Assembly (NCBI GenBank): GCA_033763455.1
Contig: JANRKO010000059.1
Location: forward strand, 18,375-82,374
Reading direction: 5' to 3'
Source of the DNA: Polyangiaceae bacterium
GTDB taxonomy: Bacteria > Myxococcota_A > Polyangia > Polyangiales > Polyangiaceae
Length of the DNA stretch: 64,000 nucleotides
Shown: in pieces, positions 28,422-60,658 of the stretch
Position numbering within the stretch: position 1 is the first letter of the stretch
Layout of the letters: every line of letters starts with the position of its first letter
Notes under the pieces: model-generated
Told to the model about the DNA's origin: nothing
What the model saw: only the letters and a program-made list of their open reading frames with translations
The model's database searches: none
Position numbers and translations under genes: made by a program

Positions 28422-28505
28422 GCGAAGGTGGCGGAACTGGCAGACGCACTAGCTTGAGGTGCTAGCGGGGTTATTCCCATGGAGGTTCAAGTCCTCTCCT
28501 TCGCA
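28422..28505 (+). tRNA. tRNA-Leu (anticodon GAG), CCA not encoded
   Basis: Acceptor GCGAAGG/CCTTCGC + A; anticodon stem CTAGC-TTGAGGT-GCTAG; long variable arm; GGTTCAAGTCC T-arm. Confidence 0.95.
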
Positions 28506-29495
28506 CAAAGGCATTCTAATCGGGGAGTTGCCGACCCCAGCTAGGCGCTCCCGAGCGCTAGCGGGGTAGGGGGCTGGTTTCTGGCCCGGCGGGGTGAAGC
28601 CGGTGGGGCCAGCGCCGGAGAGAGCACGCCGTGCGGCGGCTTGGTTGGGGCGCACGTAGATGGCCGTGGTCGAGATACGGGTGTGGCCGGCGACGAACGC
28701 GGCGCCATTAAGGTTGGTTTCGGCGAGCTGGGTTAGGCGAGCTGAGCGGAGGTCATACGCCGTGAAGGTCTTGGCTTTGGCGGGGGTGAGCACGGCTGCT
28801 GCCGCGGCCCTCAGCTGATCGCGGTAGTCATGGTCGCCGAAGATCAAGCCGTGATCTGGAAGAATGGAGTCGAGCGCCGCGCACGCCTCAGGGCTGAGAG
28901 GAACTTCACGGCTGAAGCGTGCCTTGTCTATGTCCTCGGTGATGGTGAGCGACGTAGCGCCGCGGGTATAGTGCTCGGGTACGCTGAGTGCGTTAAGCGT
29001 GGCCGGTCGCAGAGAGGTTTCAAATGCGACCACGAAACGAGCCCGGATGGGGAAGCGGGAGACCCGCAGGGATTCGGACCATTCGGGTAAGCAGTTAATT
29101 AGTAAACGACATTCCTCAACGCCCAACTCGGTGGATTTGCCACGACGGCGCACACCAAATCGCGTCCCGGTGGCTCGGCGTGCAGGTTTGGGAATAACCG
29201 GAGCTGCGTCGACGTAGCCTTGCTCTTGGCACCAAGCTAAGAACCCCCGCAATGCAGAAAGTTCCTTATTGACCGTCGTTTTGAGGACACTCCCGAGCCT
29301 GTGGCGCATGTAATCTGCCGCCCGTGCTGAAGTGATGGCACCCAAGGTCTTGAAGAAAGGTGCAATGTGGGTGGCACCGTACGTCATCAGGTAGAGATTG
29401 TTCGTTTCTGGGTCGCGTTCGTTCGTAGTTTCCGTGATCCAGCGAGACCAGAGTTCGTCCACGGGCGTGTCAGGGTTGATGGTCCAGGTGCTCAT
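28449..29495 (-). CDS. tyrosine recombinase/integrase (integrated, C-terminally short form)
   Basis: TVNKELSALRGFL, catalytic R (SLRP), K (DKAR), YDLR (Y in place of H of HxxR), GHT, Y (TTAIYV); 3' end runs through attL antisense to the tRNA. Confidence 0.9.
   Translation of the reverse strand: MSTWTINPDTPVDELWSRWITETTNERDPETNNLYLMTYGATHIAPFFKTLGAITSARAADYMRHRLGSVLKTTVNKELSALRGFLAWCQEQGYVDAAPVIPKPARRATGTRFGVRRRGKSTELGVEECRLLINCLPEWSESLRVSRFPIRARFVVAFETSLRPATLNALSVPEHYTRGATSLTITEDIDKARFSREVPLSPEACAALDSILPDHGLIFGDHDYRDQLRAAAAAVLTPAKAKTFTAYDLRSARLTQLAETNLNGAAFVAGHTRISTTAIYVRPNQAAARRALSGAGPTGFTPPGQKPAPYPASARERLAGVGNSPIRMPLCEGEDLNLHGNNPASTSS
28452..28610 (+). repeat. attL (left direct repeat)
   Basis: 156/159 identical to 60500-60658; begins in the anticodon arm. 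Confidence 0.92.
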
Positions 29496-36990: not shown

Positions 36991-37006
36991 TGGCACGGGT
37001 CCTGCT
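36991..37006 (+). promoter_or_regulatory. sigma54 -24/-12 promoter
   Basis: TGGCACGGGTCCTGCT (GG-N10-GC) upstream of 37086. Confidence 0.55.
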
Positions 37007-37835: not shown

Positions 37836-37905
37836 GCGCCGCCGTGACGCCGCGTTGGCTCCCGCGATTCGGCGGCGTACGGGGCCGTCAAACTCCGCGC
37901 GAAGC

Positions 37906-39102
37906 ATGACCCTTCTCGTTCGCTCTCGTGAATGCCACGCTGTCGGCCAACAGCCGTTCGAAGTCGTCGAGCGCAAAGGTATCGGCCACCCGGACACCAT
38001 CTGCGACGCCGTTGCAGAGCACATTTCCCAGCAGCTCTGCCGCTATTACCTACAGCACTTCGATCACGTCCTGCATCACAACGTCGACAAGGTGTTGCTG
38101 TGTGGCGGAGCTGCTCGCCCGACATTCGGCGGGGGCGAAGTGCTCGCCCGGATCGAGATTTACTTGGCAGGGCTTGCCACGACGCAGGTGGGCGACAAGA
38201 GCATTCCCGTCGCCGAGATCGCAATCGAGGCCTGTCGCGAATGGTTGCAGGAGAATCTGTCCGAGCTCGACGTCGCGCAGCAGGTTCGGATCCATTCCAA
38301 GTTGCGGCCGGGCTCCCACGGCCTAACGGAGCTCTTCCTGCGCGGCTCGAGCCTGCCGCTCGCGAACGACACGTCGTGTGGCGTCGGCTTTGCACCCCTG
38401 ACTGATCTCGAAAGCCTGGTGCTTGCGGTCGAACGGCGACTGAACGAGCCCGCGTTGAAGCGCCTGCATCCGGAGCTTGGCTCGGATGTGAAGGTGATGG
38501 GCGTACGTCGCAGTGACGACATCGAGCTCACTGTCGCGTGCGCGATCGTGTCGCGTCATGTGCCCGATTTAGCTGCGTATTTGGCAGCCAAGGACTTGGT
38601 CGTCCAGCTCGTCCTCGCGACGGCTGCCCAGACCACCAAGCTCCACGTCAGCGTGATCGTCAACGCCGAAGACGTGCCCGAGCGCGGCGAGCTCTTCCTT
38701 ACGGTTACAGGGACCTCGGCCGAAGCAGGCGACGATGGCGAGGTCGGGCGCGGCAACCGCGCCAATGGGCTCATCACTCCGTATCGCCCCATGACGCTCG
38801 AGGCTGCGGCTGGCAAGAACCCGGTCAATCACGTCCGGAAGCTTTACAACCTGGCGGCAGGTCGAATGGCGGAAGCGCTCGTGGAACTTCTGCCTCAGGT
38901 TCAAGACGCCAGCTGCGTGCTCGTGAGTCGGATTGGCGAGCGCATCGACGAGCCTCAGGCCACCGACATCGAGCTTGGACTCGACGACCCTTCCCAAGCC
39001 GAATCGCTCACTCCCCGCGTCATCGAAATAGCGCGATCCGTGCTCCAAAATCTACCACGTCTCCAGCGCGGGTTGCTGGAGGGCACCGTGACCGTCTTCT
39101 AG
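37906..39102 (+). CDS. archaeal-type S-adenosylmethionine synthetase (methionine adenosyltransferase)
   Basis: [55 protein letters not shown]. Confidence 0.9.
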
Positions 39103-39439
39103 CGAAGCGGTGCACCCGAGCTTGGACAAACCGGCGCCTTCAGGGTGGCTGGCAACCTTGCGCAGAAATCACGCAACGGTCCCTCCTCCCTGCAAGAACT
39201 GCGTGGTTACGATTGCAGAGTATTCATGTCACGCACTATGTCGGCGCGGCCTAGATAGGTTGCAATGCTGTTCGATTCCCATGCCGCGAGTTTCATTGCT
39301 GCCGCTGGGGCAAAGCACGTGGGTGGGCGAGGTAACGCCGTGTTGTCCGCCGGTAGAGCTACGGGTCAACCGTGCTCAGTTGAGGCATTTTGCCACGCGA
39401 CAGAGCACCAAGTGGCATCTTGGGCACGACAGATGCGTA

Positions 39440-39484
39440 TGGCACAACACGTGCTTAACCACATTCTATACCCCCTGGGGGCAT
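39440..39484 (+). promoter_or_regulatory. sigma54 promoter followed by CsoR-type operator
   Basis: TGGCACAACACGTGCT (39440-39455) and ATACCCCCTGGGGGCAT (39468-39484). Confidence 0.7.
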
Positions 39485-39566
39485 GGGTCATGCCTCGATG
39501 AACTTGAAGAGTTCGATGATGATGCCCAACTGCCAACACCCAAATAGTGAATGGAGACCTTCCGAA

Positions 39567-40388
39567 ATGAACCCATGGATCACGCAGCTCCTTCGTCCGC
39601 CCGGGAGCCTATTGCTCGTCATGGCAGTGCCCGCGGTCGCCTCCGCACAGGCAGCGATGGCCCCAACGCCAAACGGGGTTGAGATGGAAGCTCCTCCAGC
39701 GGGCCCCGCACCGATGGAGGGCAGTCATGGCAGTGCGAACGCAGCGGAACCTTCCGGGCATCACGCGATGACGCACCCGTTCTTAAGCCACATGGGGCTG
39801 CCCGACGGACCCGGTGAAGCAAGTGTGCGCGTAACCGGCATTCAACGCGGCCTGAGGGATAGTTCCGGGACGGATGCGGCCTTTCACGTCGAAGCGGGGA
39901 TTGCCGATCGCCTCGGTTTGCACTTGCGCAACGACGCCATTACCGGAGCCGGCATGCGCTCCGCGGATGGGAAAATGGAGGACCACGGCACGGAGTTGAT
40001 GTTGATGTACGCGGTGCTCGAAGATGCCGAGGCGACGCGCGGTGTGTCACTGTTTGGCGAGGTCGCTGCACCTACCGTTCGTGGCGAGGGGCCGTCCGTG
40101 AAATTTGGAGGCGGAGTCGGGGCGCGTTTCATTCTGGCGACCCGGCTTCAGTGGGACGGAGTCGTGCACATCGCGCCAGCCGAGGGCAAGGGCGCCGAAA
40201 TGGGGTACGAGACTGCGCTTGTGGTCCGTACGGTGGGCCGCGTTTTTGGGGTCGTGGAGACACGCGGCGAAATTAGCAGCGGCGCGCCCACGAACTACGT
40301 TCTGTTTGCGCCAAAGGTTGGCTTGGGTGAAACTGGTGCTGCTCGGCGGACGCCTCTATCCGTAACGGAGAATTATCATCATGCATAA
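39567..40388 (+). CDS. putative outer-membrane protein with His/Met-rich N-terminus, possibly 3'-truncated
   Basis: Signal peptide AVASA; MEGSHG...GHHAMTHPFLSHMG; alternating beta-strand pattern; no terminal aromatic strand. Confidence 0.55.
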   Translation: MNPWITQLLRPPGSLLLVMAVPAVASAQAAMAPTPNGVEMEAPPAGPAPMEGSHGSANAAEPSGHHAMTHPFLSHMGLPDGPGEASVRVTGIQRGLRDSSGTDAAFHVEAGIADRLGLHLRNDAITGAGMRSADGKMEDHGTELMLMYAVLEDAEATRGVSLFGEVAAPTVRGEGPSVKFGGGVGARFILATRLQWDGVVHIAPAEGKGAEMGYETALVVRTVGRVFGVVETRGEISSGAPTNYVLFAPKVGLGETGAARRTPLSVTENYHHA

Positions 40389-40617
40389 GAACACTCAGAA
40401 ATCGCCCGAAATCATCCTTGAGCAGACCGAGATCCCGATCGAGCTCATCGCCAGTCGTGCGTATGACAAATGGCAGCAACGTGGGTGCCCTCTTTGGGAG
40501 GAACAGACGGACTGGTTCGCCGCTCGGACTGAGCTTGAACAGCAAGCTAGCCACCCGCAAGAAATGCTCGAGAACGCGCTTAATTCCCACGTGAAGGCCG
40601 CAGACGGAAGCGAATAA
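40381..40617 (+). CDS. DUF2934 domain protein
   Basis: IASRAYDKWQQRGCP.....DWFAARTEL. Confidence 0.75.
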   Translation: MHKNTQKSPEIILEQTEIPIELIASRAYDKWQQRGCPLWEEQTDWFAARTELEQQASHPQEMLENALNSHVKAADGSE

Positions 40618-40748
40618 TTGGCGCTGACAGCAAGCAGTCACCGGGGGGGGACTCCGATTTGACCATGTGGGGCAGCCCGGGCTCGTCAACAATGGTTAGA
40701 GCGCTCGGGCTACGGCATGCAGCGACATGATAATATGAAAGGAAGGGA

Positions 40749-41513
40749 ATGAACATGATTCGCTCAATCTGGTACACATCAACTCTCAGTTTGCTCGCAG
40801 CGGCATGCGCATCGACTCCGGGCGCAAAACCGCACGACATGAGCGACGCGCAGCACGAGCGAGAAAGCCAATCGCAAGGCGCCACGGCGGACGCTCACGC
40901 AGCCCAGTACGACTCGAATGCGAGGGTCGAGCGCTGGCGGTGCTCGCCCAGGGGAGGCGGGCGCGCCGGTGCAGAGTTCGGCGGATGTTGGAGCTCCGTC
41001 TTGAACCCAACGACGGCGCATCTCCACGCCGCCGAGGATCACCGGCGGCAGGCGGCAGATCATCGTGCGGCCTCTGCTGCCCTCCGCGGCGCTGAAGCTC
41101 GAAGCTGTGTCGGCATCAGTTCCGACGACCGGGACATGAGCCCGTTCGAGCACGTGGAGGACATCACAAGCGTGGAGCCGTTGATAGACCGCAACGGCAG
41201 CAGCGTGGCACCCTCCCTGCGGACGGTCGGAGCAATCGTCACGTTCCGCGCGGTTCCCGGCATGACGTCGAAGTGGTTGCAACGCGTGATGGACTGCCAC
41301 CTTGCCCGCAATGCCTCGCTTGGTCATACGGTGCCCGAGATGCCGAACTGTCCGCTCGTCCTGAAAGGAGCCCAAGCGCGCGTGACTGCAACAGGCAACG
41401 GATTCGCGGTAGCGATTCGTTCCGACGACCCTGCTACGGCGCGCGAGATCCTGTCGCGTGCAGAGCGACTTCACGCCGCAACCGTTAACTCCGCGGCATC
41501 AACAACTAGGTGA
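40749..41513 (+). CDS. His/Cys-rich lipoprotein family copy 2
   Basis: RBS AAGGAAGG; lipobox AAAC; HDMS..QH, DRDMSPF, WLQRVMDCHLARN, GHTVPEMPNCPLV. Confidence 0.85.
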   Translation: MNMIRSIWYTSTLSLLAAACASTPGAKPHDMSDAQHERESQSQGATADAHAAQYDSNARVERWRCSPRGGGRAGAEFGGCWSSVLNPTTAHLHAAEDHRRQAADHRAASAALRGAEARSCVGISSDDRDMSPFEHVEDITSVEPLIDRNGSSVAPSLRTVGAIVTFRAVPGMTSKWLQRVMDCHLARNASLGHTVPEMPNCPLVLKGAQARVTATGNGFAVAIRSDDPATAREILSRAERLHAATVNSAASTTR

Positions 41514-41604
41514 GCACAGGACCCAAGGTCTGGACGGATTGCGCGAACGCCTTGCTGAGTATGCTCAAATGGGCGCTCGGATGCAATTGCGGAAAGCACT
41601 TGCG

Positions 41605-42072
41605 TCAGTGGCTGCCGCCGGCTCCAGCGCCACCAGTTCCGGCACCGCCGGTTCCCGATGCCGCCGCCAACGCGAATGTGACTACGTTGGAGTAGTTGTT
41701 ATGTTCTGCGGCTTCTTTGCCCATGGCCATCACTCGGTAGGCGTAGGTAACTCCGGCCGTTAGCGGCGCATCGTGGTACTGAACCGTGTTAAAGGGAAGC
41801 GTACTGACCACGGCAAATTCTGCGGCACCTGCTTTACGTTCGAGCATGAACTGCGATTCGTTGTCCGAATTGTCTTTCCAGGTTAGGTGAGCTCCGCCCC
41901 CAAGCTCCATCGCGGACAGTTCGCTTGGGGCGTTGGGCATCATGTTGTTAGACATGTCCATGCCGCAGGCTACGGTAATGAATGCAGCTGCCGACGTAAA
42001 CGTGAGTTTGGTGAGGTTGGTGTGCACAGGTCGCATGTTTTGGTTCCTTGTTGGCTTGATGAATGTTCTCAT
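41605..42072 (-). CDS. fibronectin type III lipoprotein with Met-rich N-terminus
   Basis: TVAC lipobox, MDMSNNMM, PNAPSEL...LTWKDNSDNE...YAYRVMA. Confidence 0.7.
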   Translation of the reverse strand: MRTFIKPTRNQNMRPVHTNLTKLTFTSAAAFITVACGMDMSNNMMPNAPSELSAMELGGGAHLTWKDNSDNESQFMLERKAGAAEFAVVSTLPFNTVQYHDAPLTAGVTYAYRVMAMGKEAAEHNNYSNVVTFALAAASGTGGAGTGGAGAGGSH

Positions 42073-43508
42073 TGAGTTAGCCGCAGTTCGCCCATCATTC
42101 CACGCTCGGCGTGCTCAAGGATGTGACAGTGGTACATCCATGTCCCTGGTGTGCCGTAGCGAACGGCGAACCGCACGGTGCTTTTTTGTGGGACATTTAC
42201 CGTGTCTTTCCAGCCTACGTGGGCGGGGGGCACGCCATCGACATCCAGAACCTTGAAGAACATCCCGTGCAGATGAAAAGGGTGGTCCATTTCGGTGTCG
42301 CTCTTAACGCTCCAGATCTCAATGGCACCTTCTTTGGCATCAATGGGAGGCACGGCTGGAAACTGTTGTTTATTGATGAAAAATTTTGGCTCCTGCCCCG
42401 GTTCCTTAGGTTCCTCCTCCTGCAGCACCAACTCCCGCAGAGGAGCGTCGAGCGGTACTTCAAGGTCAACGGTGCGACCCCAAATGCTAGGCAGCGGTGG
42501 CGGTGTGGGTGCCGCAGCCTCAAATCTTAGACTGAGCAAACTGAGGGGTCCGGGGTCGGCTATGGCGTGACCTCTGTCGTAATGGATTGTCTCCAGCGCC
42601 AATGTGGTGCCCGCCGGGCCTGTTGGCGTCACGAGGACCTCGTAGCGCTCGCCCGGCGCAATCAACAATGTATCTGCTTCATAGGGCTGCGGCAAAAGGC
42701 CGCCGTCCCATCCGATCACCGTGAATCGCTGCCCCGGCAACCTAAGATTGAAATACCGTCCGTTGGCTGCATTCACGAAGCGCCAACGTTCACGCGCCCC
42801 GCTTCTAACCTCTATCTGAGAACCTACTTTGCCGTTGACCAGCAATGTATTGCCCTGCCGCCCCAACATCCAGTCGAGAGCCTCGACGCGGGTTGAAAGG
42901 TTTCCGGTTGACTCAAGCTTTACGTCGTCAAGCACGAACGCCCGGTCGTTCGACACGACAATGTTATCCTCTTCCTTGACGACCAACATGCCGTAGAGGC
43001 CACGTTCCAGCTGGACGTCAGCGTGCACATGCGGATGGTACCAAAACGTTCCGGCGTCATTCGCCGTGAACTCGTAGTTGAATGTCTCCCCCGGTGCGAC
43101 TTCCCTTTGCGTCGAGGGGGTGCCGTCGGCAACGTTAGGAACACGAAGACCGTGCCAGTGGACGGTCGTCGCTTCTGGCAGGTCGTTCCGAAAATGGACG
43201 ATCACTCGGTCGCCCTTATTCGCCAGGATGAGAGGCCCCGGCACTGACGCTTGGCTTCCATCTTTCGAGCTATCCCGATAACCCCAGATGTCAGCAGGGC
43301 CGGCACTCAGGTAACGAGTGGTGCCAGTTGCCGCCACCAGGTTAATTTCTACAACATTTTCAAGGGGATTGACGTCAATTATTGGTGACACCGCAGTTGG
43401 TTCGCCGCCACTCGCGGGCTCGCCTGAGCAAGCGACCGCCCCCAACGCAATGAAGGCGAAAGCCAGGCGCTTGAACGACCGCAGAAGCAAGAACATGGGC
43501 GAACTCAT
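42069..43508 (-). CDS. multicopper oxidase (laccase/CueO-like) lipoprotein
   Basis: Lipobox AVAC; HWHG, WYHPH, HPFHLHG, HCHILEH...M. Confidence 0.92.
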   Translation of the reverse strand: MSSPMFLLLRSFKRLAFAFIALGAVACSGEPASGGEPTAVSPIIDVNPLENVVEINLVAATGTTRYLSAGPADIWGYRDSSKDGSQASVPGPLILANKGDRVIVHFRNDLPEATTVHWHGLRVPNVADGTPSTQREVAPGETFNYEFTANDAGTFWYHPHVHADVQLERGLYGMLVVKEEDNIVVSNDRAFVLDDVKLESTGNLSTRVEALDWMLGRQGNTLLVNGKVGSQIEVRSGARERWRFVNAANGRYFNLRLPGQRFTVIGWDGGLLPQPYEADTLLIAPGERYEVLVTPTGPAGTTLALETIHYDRGHAIADPGPLSLLSLRFEAAAPTPPPLPSIWGRTVDLEVPLDAPLRELVLQEEEPKEPGQEPKFFINKQQFPAVPPIDAKEGAIEIWSVKSDTEMDHPFHLHGMFFKVLDVDGVPPAHVGWKDTVNVPQKSTVRFAVRYGTPGTWMYHCHILEHAERGMMGELRLTQ

Positions 43509-43570
43509 AGGGAGGCTTCGATTCCTTCACAATGCGAGGCATTTGACAAACACCACCACCGACGCTGCAC

Positions 43571-44047
43571 TCAGTTGCGTTTGATGCGCTGCGCGTAGGC
43601 CACGAGGTTCGCCTGCGTCTCGAAGTACGTCACCGCCCCTCTTTCGTCCTGCGCGATAACAGCCTGCGACTTGTCCACGGGGCGGTTCGAAACCGGATCC
43701 GTTGCCGTGCGCGCTGAAATGTCGCGATTGAGGCGTCCTTTGCACATCTCGCAGCAGCCGTAGTAGGTGCGTCCGCCGACCTCGACCGGGATCTGTGCAC
43801 GCCCCATGAACTGGTTGTTGACCATGCACACCTGGCTGCGATCCGCGACCAGAGTGAGGGTGCCGGCCGGCGTCGAAGAACTTGCGGTCGCAGACACCGC
43901 GGGCCTTGCTGGCTGAGTGGAGACGGATGAGGCAGCCGGCACGGGCTGCACCGCGGTCTTTCCGGTGACCGTGGTACGGTTGCCTTCGGAACAACCGGGG
44001 GCGATTAGCGCCAAGGCGACCACTGTTGGCAGGAGGATTCGTCTCAT
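43571..44047 (-). CDS. YHS/TRASH metal-binding lipoprotein
   Basis: Lipobox APGC; VCMVNN...TYYGCCEMC and TDPVS..VDKS. Confidence 0.75.
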   Translation of the reverse strand: MRRILLPTVVALALIAPGCSEGNRTTVTGKTAVQPVPAASSVSTQPARPAVSATASSSTPAGTLTLVADRSQVCMVNNQFMGRAQIPVEVGGRTYYGCCEMCKGRLNRDISARTATDPVSNRPVDKSQAVIAQDERGAVTYFETQANLVAYAQRIKRN

Positions 44048-44551
44048 ATTTGTTTCTGCTTTCTGGGATCTTTCTCTACATGGACATAGGCCGTAGGCAC
44101 CGGCTCGAAGAAGCGTGACAGTCTATTTACTGCTGGAGCGAGGCCCCGGCGTTACGGGCTGATCCGCCACGTTGTCGACCGACGGGAACATGATTCGTGG
44201 ATCGGCGATGGAGACGACAATAGCGCCGGCAAATGATGCTTTGAGGTTCGGGTGGAAAGCGATCGCTACTAGGCAGCGGGGTACTGACTCGCCAGGCACG
44301 TCGTCCTGTGCGATAGGGCTAGGCGCAAGCTTGCTCAGTTGAGGCATTTCGCTACGTGGCCATTGAAGAGCGCTCGCTAAGCGTGTTTCCGGAAGGAGGG
44401 AACACGTCGCAAGAGGTTGCTTAACTCCGCGCAGGGTTTTCTCGGGTGTGCCTGCTGGGCGCAATATGTGCGCGCACTCAGCAAGCCTTTAGTCCACGTT
44501 TCGGGGGCCTCGCGCAGAAAAGGCTCGCACCAGCTCAGTGACGCGCTCCAA

Positions 44552-44596
44552 CGGCATGGTCCTTGCTCTCGAGCACAGCATACCCCCAGGGGGCAT
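44552..44596 (+). promoter_or_regulatory. sigma54 promoter followed by CsoR-type operator
   Basis: CGGCATGGTCCTTGCT (44552-44567) and ATACCCCCAGGGGGCAT (44580-44596), directly upstream of csoR. Confidence 0.75.
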
Positions 44597-44618: not shown

Positions 44619-44915
44619 ATGATGAATGAAAACACGAAAAACAAAGTCCTAGCCCGCCTTCACCGAATCTCAGGCCAGGTAGAGGGCATTGCGCGCATGG
44701 TCGAAGGGGACCGTTATTGCGTCGATCTACTGCTCCAGATCGCCTCTGCCCAAGCGGCACTCAGCGAAGCGGGCAAGCTAATCCTACGGTCGCACGTGGA
44801 AATCTGCGTTTCCAATGTTCTTTCATCCGGCAAGCCAGCCGAGAGGAAGCAGAAAATAGACGAACTCATGCAGGTCTTTGCGCGCTACGGCTGCCTGGGG
44901 GCACGCGCAAAGTAG
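44619..44915 (+). CDS. csoR: CsoR-family copper-sensing repressor
   Basis: RLHRISGQVEGIARMVE.DRYC...HVEIC; C-H-C ligand fingerprint. Confidence 0.9.
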   Translation: MMNENTKNKVLARLHRISGQVEGIARMVEGDRYCVDLLLQIASAQAALSEAGKLILRSHVEICVSNVLSSGKPAERKQKIDELMQVFARYGCLGARAK

Positions 44916-45002: not shown

Positions 45003-45719
45003 ATGAAACTTTCACTCTCGCGCTTAGTTCTACTTCCCCTAACCCTGGCTGCTGGAGCCTGCGCGCACTCCGCGGGGACCGCTCCGCATGAGATGAGCGC
45101 GGCGGAACACCAGGCTGCCGCCCAGAACGAAGACCAACAAGCGGGAGGGCACGAAGCGCAGTATGACGCGAACGCACGGCAGTCTACCGTCTCATGCAAA
45201 CCGAGCAGGGGTCGCGTCTGCTGGACGGCATGGGAGAACCCGACCAAGGAGCATAATGTTTCGGCGGCAGAGCATCACGAGCTCGCGGCCAAGCACCGCG
45301 CGGCCTCCAAAGAACTCGCTGATGCTGAGGCCCGTGAATGCGCCGGTCTGAGCGACGAAGATCGCGATGTCAGCCCATTTGCCCGCGGGGCTGATATCTC
45401 AAGCGTTGCACAACTCAAGGAGGACAAGCGTGTCGGCAAAGCTTCGGTGTCGCGCGAAGCCGGGGCGACGATCGTCTTTCGCGCGGCGCCAGGGCTGACC
45501 GCAGAGTGGCTACAGCGCATCGTTGATTGCCACCTCGCCCGAAACTCTGCGGTCGGGCACGACATGCCAGAGATGTCCTATTGCCCACTCGTCCCACGCG
45601 GAGCGCAGGCGAAAGTGCACTCGTCCGGTGATGGCTTTGCCGTGGATGTTCGTTCTGACGACGCGGAGACTGCCGCTGAGATATGGAAGCGGGCGCAGCA
45701 GCTCAGCATCAAGCCTTGA
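45003..45719 (+). CDS. His/Cys-rich lipoprotein family copy 3
   Basis: RBS AAGGA; lipobox AGAC; lies between csoR and the tolC-cusB-cusA genes. Confidence 0.85.
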   Translation: MKLSLSRLVLLPLTLAAGACAHSAGTAPHEMSAAEHQAAAQNEDQQAGGHEAQYDANARQSTVSCKPSRGRVCWTAWENPTKEHNVSAAEHHELAAKHRAASKELADAEARECAGLSDEDRDVSPFARGADISSVAQLKEDKRVGKASVSREAGATIVFRAAPGLTAEWLQRIVDCHLARNSAVGHDMPEMSYCPLVPRGAQAKVHSSGDGFAVDVRSDDAETAAEIWKRAQQLSIKP

Positions 45720-45721
45720 GC

Positions 45722-47014
45722 ATGAAGTCGAAAAGAGCTGCCGTTGTCATTGCCTGGTGCGCGGCAATTTGTTTAGTCCAGAGCATATCCCTGCAGGCCG
45801 AGGCCCAAGCGCGCAAGGGCTCAGAAGCAACGCTCGCTCTTCCAGAGCCCCTCCACATTCAGCAAGTCCTAGAGCTGGCACGCTCGCGACGCGCCGAAGT
45901 TGTGGCCGCTCGGGAACGTGCACGCGCGGCTTCTGAGCGGCCCGCCATCGTGGCTGCATTGGAAGAGCCCGTGGTTTCGGCGTCCGTGGATCACCTCCCG
46001 TTCATGCTCAACGGGGCCGACGTTAGCCTCACCGTCGAACAGCGGTTCCCGCTTTCGAAGGTTCGCGGAAACCTGCGGCGTGCGGCGGAGGCCGAAGCCA
46101 CGCGACTTCGCTCCGACACGAATCGGGTGGGGCTCGACGTTGAGTGGGAAGCAGCAAGCTCCTTTTTGATGCTGCACGAGCGGCGGCAAACAGCCAATAT
46201 TTTGATAGAACAGCTGGGTCTCGCCCAGGAGTTGGTGGGCGCAACCACTGCGCGCTACGCAAGCGGCAACGGTCTGCAAGCGGACGTCCTTCGGGCGGAG
46301 CTTGAAGTCGCTCGCCTGGAGGCTGCGCAGCTCTCGCAAAAATCCGAAATTCGTGGAGCTGAGGCCATGCTGAATGCAAGCCTTGCGCGCGACACGCGGG
46401 CACCTATCCCCGAGCTTGCCAGCGCAGCTATCACAACAGAACCACCGGAGTTCGTAGCAGCACGCGATGCGGCGCTTGGAAACCGCCCAGAGGTCGCCTC
46501 CGGGCGTGCCGAGATCACAAAGGCCCAAGCGGACGTGTCGGTGATGAATTCCATGTATTCGCCGATGGCGATGCTGCGCACCGGCCCTTCGTACACGATG
46601 AACGATGGGCCAGGCTGGATGCTGATGGTCGGCGTGAGCGTCCCGATTTGGCGTGAGCGTCTGAGCTCCGGTGTGCGCGAGGCTGAGGCCATGCTGGGCA
46701 TGTCGCGGGCCGATCTGAGTGCCATGAAGCGTATGATAGAGGGTGAGGTTGCCAATTCTCGCTACCAATTGCTCTCCGTGCGGGATCGCTATCTTGCACT
46801 CCGGGATCAACTTCGCCCGCGCGCCAAGCGCATGGTCGAAACCGCCCTCACCAGTTACTCAACTGGCACTCTGCCGCTCGTGAGTGTGATCGAGGCGGTC
46901 CAGACCACGTGGTCCGTCGAGACGGACTTAGTCAGCGCGGAGTTTGAGCTTGGGCTTGCCTGGGCGCGTTTTCAGCGGGCTATTGCGGCTCGCACTTGGG
47001 GTAAACATGAGTGA
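45722..47014 (+). CDS. TolC/CusC-like outer membrane efflux protein
   Basis: Signal peptide, OEP repeats (ARYASG...DVLRAELE; VSVPIW). Confidence 0.85.
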   Translation: MKSKRAAVVIAWCAAICLVQSISLQAEAQARKGSEATLALPEPLHIQQVLELARSRRAEVVAARERARAASERPAIVAALEEPVVSASVDHLPFMLNGADVSLTVEQRFPLSKVRGNLRRAAEAEATRLRSDTNRVGLDVEWEAASSFLMLHERRQTANILIEQLGLAQELVGATTARYASGNGLQADVLRAELEVARLEAAQLSQKSEIRGAEAMLNASLARDTRAPIPELASAAITTEPPEFVAARDAALGNRPEVASGRAEITKAQADVSVMNSMYSPMAMLRTGPSYTMNDGPGWMLMVGVSVPIWRERLSSGVREAEAMLGMSRADLSAMKRMIEGEVANSRYQLLSVRDRYLALRDQLRPRAKRMVETALTSYSTGTLPLVSVIEAVQTTWSVETDLVSAEFELGLAWARFQRAIAARTWGKHE

Positions 47015-48368
47015 TCCAAAAACGGAAATAGACGGCGGGCAGGCGGAGGTCGGGCCCGAAGGCAAGAGCAAGCACGAGTGGCGGACCTTCACGACGGGTG
47101 CCGGCTTGATGCTGGTTCTCTTCGGTGGCCTTGTCCTTGTTCAGCATCTGCGCCACGGTTGGCCCTTTTCACTGCACCATGGGATAGTCAGCTCACAGTC
47201 TGCGCCTGCCCCCAAAGCGCTGCCCGCCAGCGAGGATGCAAAGGCCAACGTCCGCGCTCCAGTTGAACTCGAGCCTTCTCGGCTCTCGGCTCTCGGCATT
47301 CGCGTGGAACGTGTTCGCCCCGAAATTATCGCACGCCCGCTCCGCACCGTAGCCTCGGTGGCACCCGACGAATCTCGGCTATCGCACGTGCACACTCGGG
47401 TTTCTGGCTGGATCGAGGAGCTCGGTATCAACACCACCGGGCAGTCGGTGCGCGCTGGGCAGGCGCTTGCCGGAATCTTCTCCCAAGAGCTGCTCTCCTC
47501 TCAGACGGAGTACTTGGCGGCGCGTCGAGCCTCAGAAAAGGGGCCCGTAAGTGCTGTTGCAGAAGGGGCTCGCTCGCGCCTGAAGGTGCTTGGCATGACC
47601 GACGCGGAAGTGAGCGCGATTGAACGCTCTGGCCAGCCTCGGCGGCTCGTCACGGTGACCGCACCAAGGAGTGGCGTGGTTATCCACAAGGGGATCACGG
47701 TGGGCACTGCCGTGGATCCGTCGACAGAACTTGTGGTGATCGCGGATCTATCGACGGTTTGGATCTTGGCGGAAGTTCCCGAGTCCGACATTCCCAATGT
47801 AGAGCGCGCCACACCTGTAAGTTTGCAATTCCCAGGTTCCGGCTTGGTGCCATTTGAAGCACCCGTGGACTTCTTGTACCCCACGCTGTCAGAACGCACG
47901 CGCACGTTGCGGGTGCGGATAATCGCCGAGAACCCAACCGGAGCCCTGCGCCCCGGCCTCTACGGAACTGCTGAATTTCGGGTGCGCCCGCGTTCAGCGC
48001 TCACCATTTCACGTGACGCAGTGGTGGATACCGGAGCCTCGCAGCACGTCTTCTTGGTCGAAGGCGAGGGCCGCTTTGTCCCCAAGCCCGTCAAACTCGG
48101 TGCGCGCTTTGATGATCGGGTGGAAGTACTCGAAGGGCTTCATGAAGGCGACGCCATCGTGGCATCTGGTGTGTTTCTCATAGATTCGGAGAGCCGCTTG
48201 CGAGCCTCTGGTGGGGGTACGGGGCATGCGCATGGTGCGCCAGCCAAGGACTCCTCAGTACCCAACGGCGAACCTGCGCTAAAACACGAAGGCGGTTCTC
48301 ATTCGTCGGCGCCTCCACCTCCAAAAGAAGAGTCGCCGCCACACAGTGGACATGCGGTGATGCCGTGA
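47007..48368 (+). CDS. cusB: CusB-like RND membrane fusion protein
   Basis: VHTRVSGWIEEL, IADLSTVW, YPTLSERTRTLRVR, GVFLIDSES; His-rich C-tail. Confidence 0.88.
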   Translation: MSDPKTEIDGGQAEVGPEGKSKHEWRTFTTGAGLMLVLFGGLVLVQHLRHGWPFSLHHGIVSSQSAPAPKALPASEDAKANVRAPVELEPSRLSALGIRVERVRPEIIARPLRTVASVAPDESRLSHVHTRVSGWIEELGINTTGQSVRAGQALAGIFSQELLSSQTEYLAARRASEKGPVSAVAEGARSRLKVLGMTDAEVSAIERSGQPRRLVTVTAPRSGVVIHKGITVGTAVDPSTELVVIADLSTVWILAEVPESDIPNVERATPVSLQFPGSGLVPFEAPVDFLYPTLSERTRTLRVRIIAENPTGALRPGLYGTAEFRVRPRSALTISRDAVVDTGASQHVFLVEGEGRFVPKPVKLGARFDDRVEVLEGLHEGDAIVASGVFLIDSESRLRASGGGTGHAHGAPAKDSSVPNGEPALKHEGGSHSSAPPPPKEESPPHSGHAVMP

Positions 48369-51300
48369 TCGCTCGCATCATCGAATGGTCCGCCAAGCAC
48401 CATTGGATCGTATTTGGTGCCACGGGCCTTTTGATCGTGTGGGCTGTAATCGCAATGAAGCAGACCCCTTTGGACGCCCTGCCGGATCTGTCCGATCCCC
48501 AGGTGATCATCTTCAGCGATTGGATGGGGCGAAGCCCGGATCTCGTTGAAGATCAGGTGACCTACCCCTTGGTGCGCGCCCTCCAAAGTACTCCCAAGGC
48601 GCGGACGGTGCGTGGGTATTCCATGTTTGGGATGAGCTTTGTCTATGTCATCTTTCAAGATGACACCGACATCTACTGGGCGCGGACCCGCGTGCTGGAG
48701 CAACTCGGGCGGGTAAAGCAGATCTTGCCGCCAGATGTGGCGCCAGTGCTTGGCCCAGATGCGACGGGCGTTGGCTGGGTGTTTCAGTATGTCATCAACG
48801 ACAGCTCAAGGAAGCTCGATCTCGCACAACTTCGTGAGCTCCAAGACTTTACGATCCGCCCTGCATTGCAGGCGGTGTCGGGTGTCGCTGAGATCGCGAC
48901 GCTCGGCGGCTTCGAACGCCAATACCAAATCGTCTTGGATCCCAACCGGCTGGCGGCGTACGGCGTCACATTACCCGACGTGACGCGTGCTGTGCGCGAC
49001 GCCAACTCGGAAGTTGGCGCGCGTGTGCTCGAAATGGCTGGGCGCGAATACGTGCTGCGTGGACGCGGCTACGTAAAGACTCCTGCTGATCTCGAGACTA
49101 GCGTGGTGGCAGTGGGTGCCGGCGGAACACCGATCCGCGTCCGAGACGTCGCGCGCGTGCAGTTTGGGCCAGAAATTCGACGGGGTGCAGCGGATTGGAA
49201 CGGGAAGGGCGAGGCCGTAGGCGGCATCGTGGTGATGCGGGTGGGTTCCAATGCGCTCGAAGTGATCGAGTCCGTAAAGAAGGAAATCGGCAAGTTAAAC
49301 TTGCCCGATGGCGTGACGCTTGTCCCTACCTACGACCGCTCTGATTTGATCCGTGGTTCGATTGACACGCTGAAGACCACCCTGGTCGAAGAAGGCGTCA
49401 TCGTTGTTCTGATCTGTATCCTTTTTCTCTTCCACTTCCGTTCCGCACTGGTCGCGATGATCATTCTGCCGCTGGCGGCGCTGCTCTCCTTTATTGGGAT
49501 CCGCTACCTCGGGTTGACCTCAAACATCATGTCACTCGGAGGCATTGCAATTGCCGTCGGTGAACTCGGGGACGCCGCGATCGTTTTGGTGGAGAACGCA
49601 CATGTGCGTCTTTCCACCGCACCCCAGGGTTCGGACCGCAAACGCATCATCATTGATGCGTGCAAGGAAGTGGGGAGCCCTATCTTCTTTTCTCTGCTCC
49701 TCATTACCGTTAGCTTTCTTCCGATCTTCACGCTTGCTGGCCAAGCCGGGCGGCTTTTTCGGCCACTCGCCTTCACCAAGACGTTCGCGATGTTCGCAGC
49801 AGCTCTGCTTTCGATCACCCTGGCACCGCCGCTCATGGTGCTGTTGCTGCGGGGCCGCTTCCGTACCGAAGCCGAAAATCCGGTCAGTCGGGTGCTCGGG
49901 AAACTCTACCGTCCGATCGTGCGTCGGGTGGTTCGCGCTCGATTTCTCGTGGCAGCAGCGGCGATTGCGACGATAATCGCAACCGTTCCGATGTTTCTTC
50001 GGATCGGTTCCGAGTTCATGCCGCCCTTGGATGAGGGCTCACTCTTGGTGATGCCCACCACATTTGCTGGGATCTCGATCGAAGAGGCTCGAAGAGCGTT
50101 GGCTGTCCAACACCGTGCGATCATGAGTTTTCGTGAAGTTCAGTCGGTGCATGGCAAAGCTGGGCGCGCCGAAACTGCCACTGATCCGGCACAGCTCGAT
50201 ATGATCGAAAGTGTGGTGATGTTGCGTCCCAAGGAGCAATGGCCAAAACATTTCGAGAAGCAATGGTACAGTGGGGCACCCGCATGGGTGAAAGCTCCGT
50301 TCGAACTTGTGTGGCCTGAAGAACGCACGCGCACTCAAGAGGAGCTAGTGCGCGATCTAGACCACGCGTTGCGCATGCCTGGCTATCAGATGGCGATTTC
50401 GCCCCCCATTCGCACACGTATTGACATGCTCACCACAGGCGTCCGTACGCCTGTCGGCATCAAGGTATTTGGCCAAAATCTGGCGGAGATAGAGCAGCTT
50501 TCGATTTCGCTTGAAGGCCTTTTGCGCGAAGTTTCAGGCACTCGAAGTACCTTTGCCGAGCGCCAAACAGGGCGCGAGTACGTGGACGTGGTGCCCAATC
50601 GCGAGGTCATTGCGCGCTATGGCCTCAGCATGCGCGACGTGCACGACGTGCTCGAAGCAGCCGTGGGCGGCATGAGCGTTTCGACCGTCATTTCCGGACG
50701 TTCACGCTTCTCGGTGAACCTGAGATACGCCTCGGACTACCGCAATTCACCGGACAAGTTGCGCGACATTCTCGTGCCAGTTCCCACCACGGATTCGATC
50801 GCGGACATTGATCTCGGTGTCTCCGGCACCGGTGTGTCGGGCGCCATGGCTGCGTCTTCCGACAGCATGGCGTCCGGGCCAAAGAGCGGTTCCATGGGCA
50901 CGATGAACAGCGCGAGCGGTAGCAATTCAGCTCGCTCCAGCATGGGTGCTATGGGTTCCAGCGGGGGGGTATCCCCGCCGCGCATGGGAGCGGGCCCAAG
51001 TTCTCCACCCGACACGCAGGACCGCTGGCGCCAGCCTCTCGCTACCGTGCCCCTGGGCGCGCTTGCGGAAGTCAACGTACTTACGGGACCACCGATGATA
51101 AAAGACGAGAACGGCGTACTGGTCGGGTACGTCTTTGCAGATATCGACAGCTCCAACCGGGACCTCGGTGGCTGGGTGAAAGACGCGAAAGCGCTCGTCG
51201 CTAAGAAGCTGGTACTTCCGGGAGGTTCGCGCCTCGAATGGACTGGCCAGTATGAATTCATGGCCGAGATGGAGGCGCGCATGCGGTACGTGCTGCCGCT

Positions 51301-51823
51301 CACTTTAGTGCTCATTGTGGTGCTGCTTTACCTGTCGATGAAAGGCTGGGCCCAGACGCTCCTCGTGCTTGCCAGCCTCCCTTTCGCAGCCGCGGGGAGC
51401 ATCTGGCTCCTCGCCGCCATGGGTTACAACTTCTCAACTGCCGTCTGGGTGGGGCTGATCGCGGTGGCGGGGGTCGCGGCTGAGACGGGCATCGTTATGG
51501 TGGTGTACCTGGATGAGGCTTTCGAACGAGCTCTGGGAGAAGGTCGCATTCGAGAACCCAAGGACGTAGACGCGGTGATCGTAGAGGGTGCCACACGCAA
51601 CGCCCGCCCGCTCGTGATGACGGTTGCAACCACCGTGCTCGGCCTGATGCCCTTGCTGTTCGAAAGCGGAGTCGGCGCTGATGTGTCCGCACGCACCGCA
51701 GCTCCCGTGGTTGGTGGGCTCTGGTCGTGCATGTTTCTCACCCTTTTGGTAATACCGGCCGCATACTCGATCTGGCGCAGGAGCCAAATCCGTCGCGGAA
51801 CCTTCGCTGCAATCGACCTATAA
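48365..51823 (+). CDS. cusA: CusA-type heavy-metal efflux RND transporter
   Basis: LDALPDLSDPQV, GPDATGVGWV, GSEFMPPLDEG; Met triad equivalents LVMPT, LDMIE, IDMLT. Confidence 0.92.
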   Translation: MIARIIEWSAKHHWIVFGATGLLIVWAVIAMKQTPLDALPDLSDPQVIIFSDWMGRSPDLVEDQVTYPLVRALQSTPKARTVRGYSMFGMSFVYVIFQDDTDIYWARTRVLEQLGRVKQILPPDVAPVLGPDATGVGWVFQYVINDSSRKLDLAQLRELQDFTIRPALQAVSGVAEIATLGGFERQYQIVLDPNRLAAYGVTLPDVTRAVRDANSEVGARVLEMAGREYVLRGRGYVKTPADLETSVVAVGAGGTPIRVRDVARVQFGPEIRRGAADWNGKGEAVGGIVVMRVGSNALEVIESVKKEIGKLNLPDGVTLVPTYDRSDLIRGSIDTLKTTLVEEGVIVVLICILFLFHFRSALVAMIILPLAALLSFIGIRYLGLTSNIMSLGGIAIAVGELGDAAIVLVENAHVRLSTAPQGSDRKRIIIDACKEVGSPIFFSLLLITVSFLPIFTLAGQAGRLFRPLAFTKTFAMFAAALLSITLAPPLMVLLLRGRFRTEAENPVSRVLGKLYRPIVRRVVRARFLVAAAAIATIIATVPMFLRIGSEFMPPLDEGSLLVMPTTFAGISIEEARRALAVQHRAIMSFREVQSVHGKAGRAETATDPAQLDMIESVVMLRPKEQWPKHFEKQWYSGAPAWVKAPFELVWPEERTRTQEELVRDLDHALRMPGYQMAISPPIRTRIDMLTTGVRTPVGIKVFGQNLAEIEQLSISLEGLLREVSGTRSTFAERQTGREYVDVVPNREVIARYGLSMRDVHDVLEAAVGGMSVSTVISGRSRFSVNLRYASDYRNSPDKLRDILVPVPTTDSIADIDLGVSGTGVSGAMAASSDSMASGPKSGSMGTMNSASGSNSARSSMGAMGSSGGVSPPRMGAGPSSPPDTQDRWRQPLATVPLGALAEVNVLTGPPMIKDENGVLVGYVFADIDSSNRDLGGWVKDAKALVAKKLVLPGGSRLEWTGQYEFMAEMEARMRYVLPLTLVLIVVLLYLSMKGWAQTLLVLASLPFAAAGSIWLLAAMGYNFSTAVWVGLIAVAGVAAETGIVMVVYLDEAFERALGEGRIREPKDVDAVIVEGATRNARPLVMTVATTVLGLMPLLFESGVGADVSARTAAPVVGGLWSCMFLTLLVIPAAYSIWRRSQIRRGTFAAIDL

Positions 51824-60499: not shown

Positions 60500-60658
60500 G
60501 CTTGAGGTGCTAGCGGGGTTATTCCCATGGAGGTTCAAGTCCTCTCCTTCGCACAAAGGCATTCTAATCGGGGAGTTGCCAACCCCAGCTAGGCGCTTCC
60601 GAGCGCTAGCGGGGTAGGGGGCTGGTTTCTGGCCCGGTGGGGTGAAGCCGGTGGGGCC
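60500..60658 (+). repeat. attR (right direct repeat, includes tRNA-Leu 3' half)
   Basis: 156/159 identical to 28452-28610. Confidence 0.92.

Follow-up and report, generated by a model that had tools for sequence, protein, structure and literature searches.

Both copper-resistance operons in the window (the whole 64,000-nt stretch of DNA analysed here) are preceded by a −24/−12 motif with a CsoR-type operator directly after it, and it is probable, at roughly two chances in three, that both sites are sigma-54-dependent promoters, with the start region covered by the operator for the Cu(I)-sensing repressor CsoR. CsoR is the textbook one-component copper switch on sigma-70 promoters, and sigma-54 promoters are silent without an activator; to our knowledge, the latter have rarely been described with a classical repressor on the start site. 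The predicted arrangement recurs in related genomes and appears to be new for CsoR.

Two putative promoter–operator sites on a copper island

The sequence-only reading had described two −24/−12 motifs, each followed by a 17-bp box, and both pairs are present:

39440-39455, + strand: site 1 sigma-54-type promoter TGGCACaacacGTGCT (TGGCAC-N5-GTGCT), matching 10 of 11 consensus positions; predicted start at about 39466
39468-39484, no strand assigned: site 1 CsoR-type operator ATACCCCCTGGGGGCAT, at +3 to +19 of the predicted transcript
44552-44567, + strand: site 2 sigma-54-type promoter CGGCATggtccTTGCT (CGGCAT-N5-TTGCT), matching 9 of 11; predicted start at about 44578
44580-44596, no strand assigned: site 2 CsoR-type operator ATACCCCCAGGGGGCAT, at +3 to +19 of the predicted transcript

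Matches were counted out of 11 against TGGCAC-N5-TTGCW, the sigma-54 consensus quoted in the accessible part of PMC3707914, with GG and GC obligatory. At both sites, these dinucleotides lie 10 nt apart in a context resembling the consensus, from which site 2 deviates by C for T at the first position and T for C at the sixth. As had been claimed, the gap from the C of the −12 GC to the first base of the box is identical at the two sites (13 nt), and the central base is the sole difference between the boxes. The predicted operator likewise lies at the predicted start site in both cases, its span of +3 to +19 assuming that the C of GC is −12.

Operator 2 (ATACCCCCAGGGGGCAT) ends 22 nt upstream of the csoR ATG, and orf254 is probably the second gene of operon 1. 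The genes of the two operons are as follows:

39567-40388, + strand: orf273, encoding a secreted protein whose N-terminus is rich in His and Met; its ATG follows GGAGA at a distance of 9 nt
40749-41513, + strand: orf254, encoding a lipoprotein 48% identical to its paralogue orf238
44619-44915, + strand: csoR, 98 aa, with Cys34/His59/Cys63 (PF02583, 91 bits)
45003-45719, + strand: orf238, a lipoprotein of a family found almost only in Myxococcota
45683-47014, + strand: outer-membrane factor (OEP) of a Cus-like efflux system (PF02321)
46944-48368, + strand: CusB-like membrane fusion protein (PF16576, PF13437, PF16572)
48365-51823, + strand: RND pump, CusA-like (PF00873, 707 bits)

Homologues of orf238 are a recurrent target of the putative sigma-54 promoter with box, which lies directly 5′ of the gene in two other loci (L060 and L101). 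The orf273 product has no Pfam or NCBIfam match; a language-model comparison likens it to outer-membrane beta-barrel "transporter" families, which can serve only as a lead.

Both operons sit on a mobile island of about 32 kb in this soil myxobacterium, with a tRNA-Leu, an integrase and 81-bp repeats; an Rfam search returned the tRNA only.

28422-28506, + strand: tRNA-Leu(GAG), at the left end of the island
28449-29495, − strand: integrase ORF (PF00589, E 4.9e-07)
28452-28532, + strand: left copy of the 81-bp exact direct repeat, in the left end of the island (28422-28532)
60500-60580, + strand: right copy of the 81-bp repeat, at the right end of the island

Chance expectation and promoter class

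With up to three mismatches, the box pattern occurs in the window only at sites 1 and 2, each of which counts on both strands; shuffling gives an expectation of 0.40. A genome-wide search (6.56 Mb) for the strict box found these same two sites and no others. Other near-boxes in the genome (C17:821, C89:48678, C6 and C50) were rejected, being without ATA/CAT flanks and, by eye, without a −24/−12 motif. A degenerate −24/−12 pattern, fitted to the two sites and hence post hoc, also matched only sites 1 and 2 in the window, with 0.40 matches expected and two or more found in 5 of 100 shuffles. Genome-wide, scores of at least 9 and at least 10 have frequencies per position of 1.5e-4 and 1.9e-5, respectively; over its whole length, the window shows no enrichment for scores of at least 9 (24 matches versus 19 expected). 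About 0.003 motifs of that score are expected per 20-nt stretch before a box, and two boxes both preceded by such a motif would therefore arise by chance with a probability of about 1e-5.

An alternative, which we regard as unlikely, is that these −24/−12 look-alikes are unused and that CsoR is an ordinary repressor near sigma-70-family or ECF promoters missed by simple scans. In its favor, the score of site 2 is only 9 of 11, which has 1,976 occurrences in the genome; most csoR homologues of the class are on sigma-70-like promoters with the box in the spacer; and copper genes of M. xanthus also use the ECF sigma factor CorE, according to the accessible part of PMC3707914. Against it, a consensus scan found no plus-strand sigma-70-like promoter at site 1 or site 2—the scan being simple, and myxobacterial sigma-70 and ECF promoters being diverse enough to be missed—and TTGNNN-N16-18-TANNNT is absent around the box at both sites. 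The comparative evidence given below also counts against this alternative.

It is very improbable that box 1 instead serves a minus-strand sigma-70-like promoter, ATGACC-N17-TAGAAT (39491 to 39463), with the sigma-54 motif unrelated to the box. The promoter scan of 39200-39700 gave this one sigma-70-like site alone, with matches at 9 of 12 positions, and box 1 falls exactly in its 17-nt spacer, as in classical CsoR geometry. However, 0.3 such sites are expected by chance in that interval, no minus-strand gene lies downstream (the left neighbor being a plus-strand AdoMet synthetase gene at 37855-39102), and site 2 has no counterpart.

Identity of the repressor

The 98-residue CsoR matches PF02583 (Trns_repr_metal) over residues 7-88 (E 6.3e-26; 91 bits versus a cut-off of 22.8). 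Aligned to the solved chains 4m1p_A, 2hh7_A and 4adz_A, it keeps the YCVD and H-x3-C columns—in 2hh7_A, YCVD and sHveiC of the query pair with YCVD and nHletC—which we take to be the Cu(I) ligands (the Cys-His-Cys triad, or x-C-H-C fingerprint). Box 2 precedes a csoR gene encoding these copper ligands, in support of the earlier attribution of the box to CsoR. The gene is preceded by a G+C-rich pseudo-palindromic CsoR-type operator, and the same box is found in homologues.

It could be proposed that the sigma-54 promoters are real and that this CsoR-family protein does not sense Cu(I) but a different signal, such as the persulfide, nickel or formaldehyde sensed by other members of the family; the second input would therefore not be copper. 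The family includes CstR, InrS, RcnR and FrmR, with solved InrS and FrmR chains among the matches, and the model for the copper repressor RicR (NCBIfam NF052430) scored below its cut-off (65.4 versus 175 bits), such that the protein was not filed as RicR. The kept Cys-His-Cys columns, the best matches being solved copper CsoRs, and the multicopper oxidases and Cus-type RND system encoded in the operon and island make this proposal quite improbable.

Comparison with relatives

Protein-level searches of 61 relatives and of 401 genomes from the class gave 44 upstream regions of csoR homologues, amounting to 13,168 nt on each strand; promoter type played no part in the choice. A sigma-54 score of 10-11 of 11 was found on the csoR strand in five of these (L003, L004, L009, L022 and L029), in each case 7-17 nt before the box, whereas chance would give 0.24 such matches in all of the DNA scanned, and 0.02 at no more than 25 nt from a box; no score of at least 10 was found on the opposite strand in the 44 regions. 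These numbers argue for use of the motifs, and against their being idle look-alikes. The matches are phylogenetically clustered, three of the five coming from close kin. In the closest homologues of csoR, the place of promoter 2 is taken by TGGCAC-N5-TTGCT. Upstream of csoR genes, the geometry is kept in part: the motif followed by the box recurs (5/44), but the identical spacing does not, being 7-21 nt in relatives, and because of this variation the exact geometry may not matter. Upstream regions were compared in a motif-anchored manner, MAFFT alignments having left the −24/−12 motifs out of register and being unused.

The accessible part of PMC10457146 places the box of described CsoR systems on the −35 or −10 elements of sigma-70-type promoters. 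The sequence-only reading had likewise put known CsoR systems on sigma-70-type promoters, and the present survey agrees: TTGNNN-N16-18-TANNNT surrounds the box in at least 11 of 45 loci, and the box lies just after the −10 element in one more. This pattern is absent in the five regions with a sigma-54 match. In related Polyangia (e.g., L027, L028, L030, L035 and L038), a homologous CsoR with 45-55% identity is accompanied by the same ATACCCC..GGGGTAT box, which falls between TTGCAx and TATGxT, in a spacer of 16-17 nt, and a further box usually follows downstream; unlike the window, these csoR promoters (e.g., that of L027) have no −24/−12 motif.

In the congener G001, the orthologue of orf273 is preceded by TGGCACaacatCTGCT, which is identical to promoter 1 at 14 of 16 positions. 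When the two intergenic regions are compared, the best local match falls on the −24 element, the rest being unalignable, and the −24/−12 motif as the only conserved stretch again argues against an unused motif. The box is absent from this orthologous promoter.

A pattern scan of 185,579 species genomes yielded 61 loci, nine of which (L053, L058, L060, L068, L087, L092, L101, L107 and L090) have promoter and box correctly oriented with csoR or a neighbor. Eight of the nine are of Myxococcota type by record titles. Four represent DNA of loci already counted, and the five extra loci, selected by the pattern itself, are not independent tests. In a tree of which the topology alone was used (its group statistics set the two sigma-54 labels against each other and are uninformative), a single clade of 15 rows (support 82/85) holds every sigma-54-type CsoR from Myxococcota, with the CsoR of the window in a 5-row subclade showing the sigma-54 and box layout in every row. 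As read from motifs and tree, the predicted layout is characteristic of one lineage, a single clade of CsoR in Polyangia (Myxococcota), and sister lineages have kept the same operator on what are, by their motifs, ordinary sigma-70 promoters.

Sigma-54 machinery, activator and candidate enhancer

The genome encodes RpoN in a 511-aa open frame (PF04552, 216.9 bits in a profile search) and has 33 matches to PF00158, 29 of these at E 1e-55 or better, corresponding to about 29 enhancer-binding proteins (EBPs). That the island would be without its own activator was claimed earlier, and zero EBPs were indeed found in the 32-kb island or on the 82-kb contig of the window (C59). The activator may be borrowed from the host, as that reading proposed. 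The other copper loci of this genome (multicopper oxidases on C23 and C73, and an HMA ATPase on C66) have no adjacent EBP and no sigma-54 match of at least 10 just upstream.

In G001, a two-component system comprising a histidine kinase and an NtrC-type response regulator is encoded inside the equivalent locus. No orthologue of this in-locus EBP was found in the genome of the window (G000), G003 or G026; in G000, the response regulator has paralogues at 43-45% identity only, and the best match to the kinase is at 29% identity. The sensor domain of the kinase has no match at E ≤1e-5 in G000, G003 or G026. Among the five relatives with a putative sigma-54 promoter and box before csoR, csoR shares its contig with an EBP in G001 only, the EBP of G182 being 229 kb away.

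Upstream of both promoters lies a shared element, the two copies being 81% identical over 47 nt (blastn):

39351-39397, + strand: copy 1, with a 17-mer core at 39374-39390, starting 66 nt before the −24 motif
44311-44356, + strand: copy 2, with the 17-mer at 44333-44349, starting 219 nt before the −24 motif

The exact 17-mer occurs twice in the genome, both times in these copies, and is absent from the G001 locus. We regard the shared element as a candidate UAS, or enhancer, at which the activator would act. The 17-mer also has 65 exact matches in metagenome contigs, with no box and no extended similarity and with a 9/11 sigma-54 match near one only; these were taken for chance matches.

Relation to described systems

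The small PF02583 repressor with its Cys-His-Cys triad is as in M. tuberculosis cso, B. subtilis copZA, Streptomyces lividans and Bradyrhizobium csoR-copA. The G+C-rich pseudo-palindromic box of about 17-19 bp before the repressor's own gene, with copper-efflux genes downstream, is also shared with described CsoR operons, as far as the accessible parts of their descriptions go. The window differs from these systems in that the box follows a −24/−12 promoter and covers the predicted start, such that an ATP-driven activator would be required. A literature search, judged by titles and abstract openings, found no CsoR operator at a sigma-54 promoter.

Sigma-54 control of copper genes has a myxobacterial precedent in CorSR/curA of M. 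xanthus (PMC3707914, in its accessible part, as for what follows). The curA operon comprises a multicopper oxidase and a cbb3-type cytochrome c subunit III-like protein, and has putative sigma-54 promoters and an NtrC-type response regulator; a similar gene set is found at 32-36 kb of the window. No CsoR or operator is mentioned there for the curA promoters, unlike in the window. With its kinase and NtrC-type regulator in the equivalent locus, G001 resembles CorSR, whereas the genome of the window has no such two-component system on the island or contig C59 and no orthologue of the G001 pair.

Proposed mechanism and implications

In the reading that both sites are sigma-54 promoters gated by CsoR, sigma-54 RNA polymerase would bind the −24/−12 elements as a closed complex, and CsoR at +3 to +19 would block DNA opening or promoter escape until released upon Cu(I) binding to Cys34/His59/Cys63. 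After release, ATP-dependent remodelling by an EBP, of which the island encodes none, would still be required. Two inputs—the signal of the activator and cytoplasmic copper—would therefore be needed for both orf273-orf254 and csoR-orf238-cusCBA, and csoR would be under negative autoregulation. We infer such dual control, by activator and copper derepression, together with the predicted start sites and CsoR binding, from the arrangement of the motifs.

More tentatively, a wider picture can be drawn, which as a whole we consider possible but doubtful. A tRNA-integrated copper island, with two sigma-54 promoters gated by its own CsoR and no activator of its own, would have its expression wired to the recipient via a host EBP recognising the shared 47-nt element, and would thus be a portable switch for host signal AND cytoplasmic Cu(I). 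Promoter class would have been exchanged between sigma-70 and sigma-54 around a kept operator in the same CsoR clade, and the site 1 promoter of the congener, with no box, would instead work with a local metal-type two-component system.

If the proposed control is true, these operons would represent a natural two-input gate for metal resistance, in which the repressor must act on a pre-bound closed complex and not by excluding polymerase, and the promoters of a mobile island would depend on a regulator of the recipient cell. The loci would also provide a comparative series for a change of promoter class, in which sister lineages share an operator that is combined with a sigma-70 promoter in some and a sigma-54 promoter in others, and congeners share a sigma-54 promoter that either has the box or lacks it.

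Promoter motifs and CsoR boxes

Each of the two sites in the window joins a sigma-54-type −24/−12 motif to a 17-bp CsoR-type operator (the box), as follows.

39440-39455, plus strand: site 1 motif TGGCACaacacGTGCT, then 13 nt, then box ATACCCCCTGGGGGCAT at 39468-39484
44552-44567, plus strand: site 2 motif CGGCATggtccTTGCT, then 13 nt, then box ATACCCCCAGGGGGCAT at 44580-44596

When the sequence was re-read, the motifs, boxes and 13-nt gaps at both sites were found exactly as described in the sequence-only reading. Setting the C of GC as −12 places the predicted starts at 39466 and 44578 and the box at +3 to +19 at both sites. The window holds just these two boxes (four strand-wise matches at no more than three mismatches, versus 0.40 expected), which are also the only strict copies in the 6.56-Mb, 59% G+C genome. 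CCCCC-N-GGGGG was found at four other genomic sites, all lacking the ATA/CAT flanks, and no −24/−12 motif was seen by eye beside any of these four.

Motifs were scored as 16-mers, out of 11 and with GG and GC obligatory, against TGGCAC-N5-TTGCW, the sigma-54 consensus quoted in PMC3707914; site 1 scores 10/11 and site 2 scores 9/11. The −24/−12 motifs might be unused look-alikes, with cryptic sigma-70 or ECF promoters serving instead. Both strands of the genome contain 1,976 matches scoring at least 9 (1.5e-4 per position), 244 scoring at least 10 (1.9e-5 per position) and 22 scoring 11, and the window overall is not enriched (24 matches scoring at least 9 versus 19 expected, 6 of the 24 being intergenic). 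A motif scoring at least 9 is expected about 0.003 times in the 20 nt before one given box, and about 1e-5 times before both, and a plus-strand sigma-70 scan returned no promoter at either site; we consider this alternative unlikely. Two further sigma-54-like motifs share one divergent intergenic region, namely TGGCACgggtcCTGCT at 36991-37006 (plus strand; 10/11; 92 nt 5′ of a putative start at 37083) and a 9/11 motif at 36825 (minus strand), and a CsoR box is absent after both.

A sigma-70-like sequence, ATGACC-N17-TAGAAT, was observed on the minus strand at 39463-39491. Box 1 lies exactly within its spacer, as would be the case if this promoter were the one under CsoR control; no minus-strand gene follows it, and such a role is judged highly improbable.

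Genes at the sites and the copper island

Site 2 lies within a 572-nt gap 5′ of csoR, and site 1 precedes orf273, whose ribosome-binding site is good (GGAGA 9 nt 5′ of the ATG at 39567). The genes concerned are listed here.

After site 1: orf273, a 273-aa secreted, His/Met-rich protein
40749-41513: orf254, next after orf273, a 254-aa lipoprotein
After site 2: csoR, encoding a 98-aa PF02583 protein
45003-45719: orf238, a 238-aa lipoprotein, paralogous to orf254 (48% identical)
3′ of orf238, in order: OEP, CusB-like protein, ACR_tran RND pump
Between the operons, other strand: Cys-rich lipoprotein, multicopper oxidase, 155-aa protein

When the window CsoR is aligned to the solved CsoR chains 4m1p, 2hh7 and 4adz, the YCVD and H-x3-C columns contain its Cys34, His59 and Cys63, which we take to be the Cu(I) ligands of CsoR. 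An effector other than copper is, with this ligand set, quite improbable.

No match to orf273, orf254 or orf238 was found in Pfam or NCBIfam. As leads only, the Atlas groups orf238 with hypothetical proteins restricted to Myxococcota, and places orf273 beside outer-membrane “transporter”, Phenol_MetA_deg and HAEPLYID-like clusters. The orf254/orf238 lipoprotein family has been seen almost exclusively in Myxococcota. Among other observations, the divergent multicopper oxidase operon begins with a gene for a 158-aa lipoprotein (43571-44047, minus strand) that has a CCEMC motif and lacks a Pfam match; an AdoMet synthetase of the archaeal, PF01941 type (37855-39102; E 1e-147) lies centrally in the copper island, immediately 5′ of site 1; and Pfam gave no match at E ≤ 1e-5 for a 2,283-aa ORF at 17710-24561.

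The copper genes are placed on an integrative element of approximately 32 kb because of a tRNA gene, an adjacent integrase ORF and an exact direct repeat.

28422-28506: tRNA-Leu(GAG)
28449-29495, minus strand: integrase ORF adjoining the tRNA gene (Phage_integrase PF00589, E 4.9e-07)
28452-28532 and 60500-60580: exact 81-bp direct repeat

All of the copper genes lie in this island of about 32 kb, bounded by 28422-28532 and 60500-60580.

Upstream regions of csoR in related bacteria

Searches with the CsoR protein found matches in 16 of 61 relatives and, at E 1e-15 or better, in 41 of 401 genomes of the class, and upstream DNA was read at 45 loci chosen blind to promoter type, with the window's own among them; three partial matches of about 40 residues (L018, L019, L021) and matches without a returned locus were left out. 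The csoR strand of the 44 foreign loci (13,168 nt scanned on each strand) carries five motifs with a score of 10 or 11, each of them immediately 5′ of a box.

Sigma-54-type motifs before the CsoR box in foreign loci
L003: TGGCACgcgccTTGCT, gap to box 14 nt
L004: TGGCACgagcgTTGCT, gap to box 17 nt
L009: TGGCACgccggCTGCA, gap to box 7 nt
L022: TGGCGCgcctaTTGCA, gap to box 11 nt
L029: TGGCATgcgacTTGCT, gap to box 10 nt

By chance, 0.24 such motifs would be expected over all scanned DNA and 0.02 no more than 25 nt from a box, with Poisson tail values of 3e-11 (five motifs) and 1e-6 (three). Kin among the five are dependent observations: L003 and L004 are closely related to the window's csoR, and L009 (51% identity) and L029 (47%) are distant. 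On the opposite strand, the 44 loci gave no match of at least 10 and one of 9, versus two expected. Thus, of the geometry for which a scan of orthologous csoR upstream regions had been proposed, the sigma-54 motif plus box recurs, in 5 of 44 loci, and the 13-nt spacing varies. Over 12 instances, the GC-to-box gap ranges from 7 to 21 nt (box start at about −4 to +11), so that the equal 13-nt gaps at the window's two sites are no constant of the family.

A strict sigma-70 rule (TTGNNN, 16-18 nt, TANNNT, with the box within the spacer) describes 11 of the 45 loci and none of the six sigma-54-type loci; one more locus has the box just 3′ of the −10 element, and further loci, such as L008 with TTGACA-N17-TATCAC, appear sigma-70-like by eye yet fail the rule. 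According to PMC10457146, the CsoR boxes of B. liaoningense and M. tuberculosis fall on −35 or −10 elements. Both that source and the 11 loci bear out the earlier statement that known CsoR systems act on sigma-70-type promoters.

Wider pattern scan and phylogeny

A composite pattern (TGGCAY-N6-TGCW, 4-20 nt, WTRCCCC-N3-GGGG), scanned in one genome per species, matched 61 loci, which is about the order expected by chance by our own estimate. These loci extend the range of the layout and are no test of it, because they were selected by the pattern itself. A CsoR homologue lies within 450 nt of the pattern at 10 of the 61: csoR follows the promoter in six (L053, L058, L087, L092, L107, L090), precedes a promoter and box that stand before an orf238 homologue in two (L060, L101), and is on the other strand, with the motif inside its coding start, in L081 and L084, which were counted as chance. 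Four of the matches are the same DNA as blind-test loci (L058 = L009, L087 = L029, L092 = L004, L107 = L003). The lipoprotein family is a recurrent predicted CsoR target, since a sigma-54 promoter with box directly precedes its homologue in L060 and L101.

By record title, the right-orientation matches belong to Polyangiales, Polyangiaceae, Sorangium, Myxococcales or Deltaproteobacteria, except for L087 (“bacterium”) and L090 (Cloacimonadota). In L090 (52-92), ATACCCCCCAGGGGTAT lies 12 nt after TGGCATcaaaaTTGCA and precedes a gene for a 33%-identical CsoR; this could be chance or an occurrence of the architecture beyond Myxococcota. Three matches at good CsoR boxes (L065, L084, L112) are in Actinomycetota, to our knowledge a phylum without sigma-54, and show what chance produces. 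In L068 (451-560), promoter and box are kept, and csoR ends after about 10 codons, its frame running into unrelated sequence owing to a rearrangement or else to a join made in assembly. L085 and L108, from one “Deltaproteobacteria” record, carry near-identical copies of TGGCATacccaCTGCT...ATGCCCCG..GGGG on different contigs, a pattern more suggestive of a repeated element than of a CsoR site.

A tree was built from 47 CsoR homologues, with L013 excluded for its short length. One clade of 15 rows (support 82/85) takes in every Myxococcota sigma-54-type row, together with six rows that lack the motif. CsoR is a short protein, and many forks of the tree lack resolution. The window CsoR groups with L003, L004, L053 and L101, every one having the sigma-54 plus box layout. 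The simplest reading is that this layout is probably a clade-level trait, with several switches of promoter class around a constant operator.

Site 1 in congeners and the shared upstream element

Homologues of orf273 were found in 2 of 60 relatives, the congener G001 (73% identity) and G007 (a weak match). 5′ of the G001 orthologue lies TGGCACaacatCTGCT, which is identical to the window motif at 14 of 16 positions and scores 10/11; a local comparison of the two intergenic regions gives the −24 element as its best match, the remainder being unalignable, and a CsoR box is absent 3′ of this motif. A census found one box each in G001 and in the relatives G003 and G026, always at csoR, and two in the window's genome. 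Because G001 keeps the motif without a box, and single boxes stand at csoR, the operator was probably either gained at a pre-existing sigma-54 promoter in the window's genome or lost in the congener.

The two sites also share a 47-nt element (39351-39397 versus 44311-44356; 81% identical), whose 17-nt core is present at these two places and nowhere else in the genome; the core starts 66 nt 5′ of the −24 motif at site 1 and 219 nt 5′ of that at site 2. The element was not found in G001, and matches to it in metagenomes seem fortuitous. It could serve as an enhancer, or it could be left over from a partial duplication to which the orf254/orf238 pair would likewise be due.

Sigma-54 and its activator

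The genome encodes rpoN, and a profile search for enhancer-binding proteins (PF00158) gave 33 matches, 29 of them strong. The sequence-only reading was correct that no activator is encoded in the island: PF00158 has no match on the contig, and Pfam scans of the island ORFs revealed none. The other copper loci of the genome also have no enhancer-binding protein beside them.

In G001 (L114; G001:C118, 2831-5787, minus strand), the orf273 orthologue and csoR are separated by genes for a kinase and a response regulator. The kinase combines HAMP, HisKA and HATPase domains with a His-rich sensor region flanked by two hydrophobic segments, and the regulator is NtrC-type (REC, Sigma54_activat, HTH_8). 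This arrangement resembles CorSR of M. xanthus, in which CorR acts as a sigma-54 activator for the curA copper operon (PMC3707914). No orthologue of the pair was found in the window's genome, G003 or G026; the regulator's best matches in the window's genome are numerous and only 43-45% identical, and the kinase sensor domain has no match in that genome (93.7% complete), G003 or G026.

Proposed dual control

CsoR leaves DNA on binding Cu(I). Sigma-54 forms a closed complex whose opening depends on an activator (PMC6524683). A three-step mechanism is inferred from this established behaviour of sigma-54 and CsoR: CsoR bound at +3 to +19 would block opening or escape, copper would take CsoR off, and an activator would be needed even after its release. 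Starting from the observed motifs and geometry, their recurrence in relatives, and the presence of sigma-54, enhancer-binding proteins and a ligand-complete CsoR, we assign a probability of roughly two-thirds to the reading of sigma-54 promoters with a CsoR block that is relieved by copper and an activator that is still required. Full-text literature searches brought up no paper that, judging by titles and the starts of abstracts, describes CsoR operators at sigma-54 promoters. Overall, the pairing of CsoR operator and sigma-54 promoter is rated as made of known parts in an undescribed combination that is conserved in one lineage.
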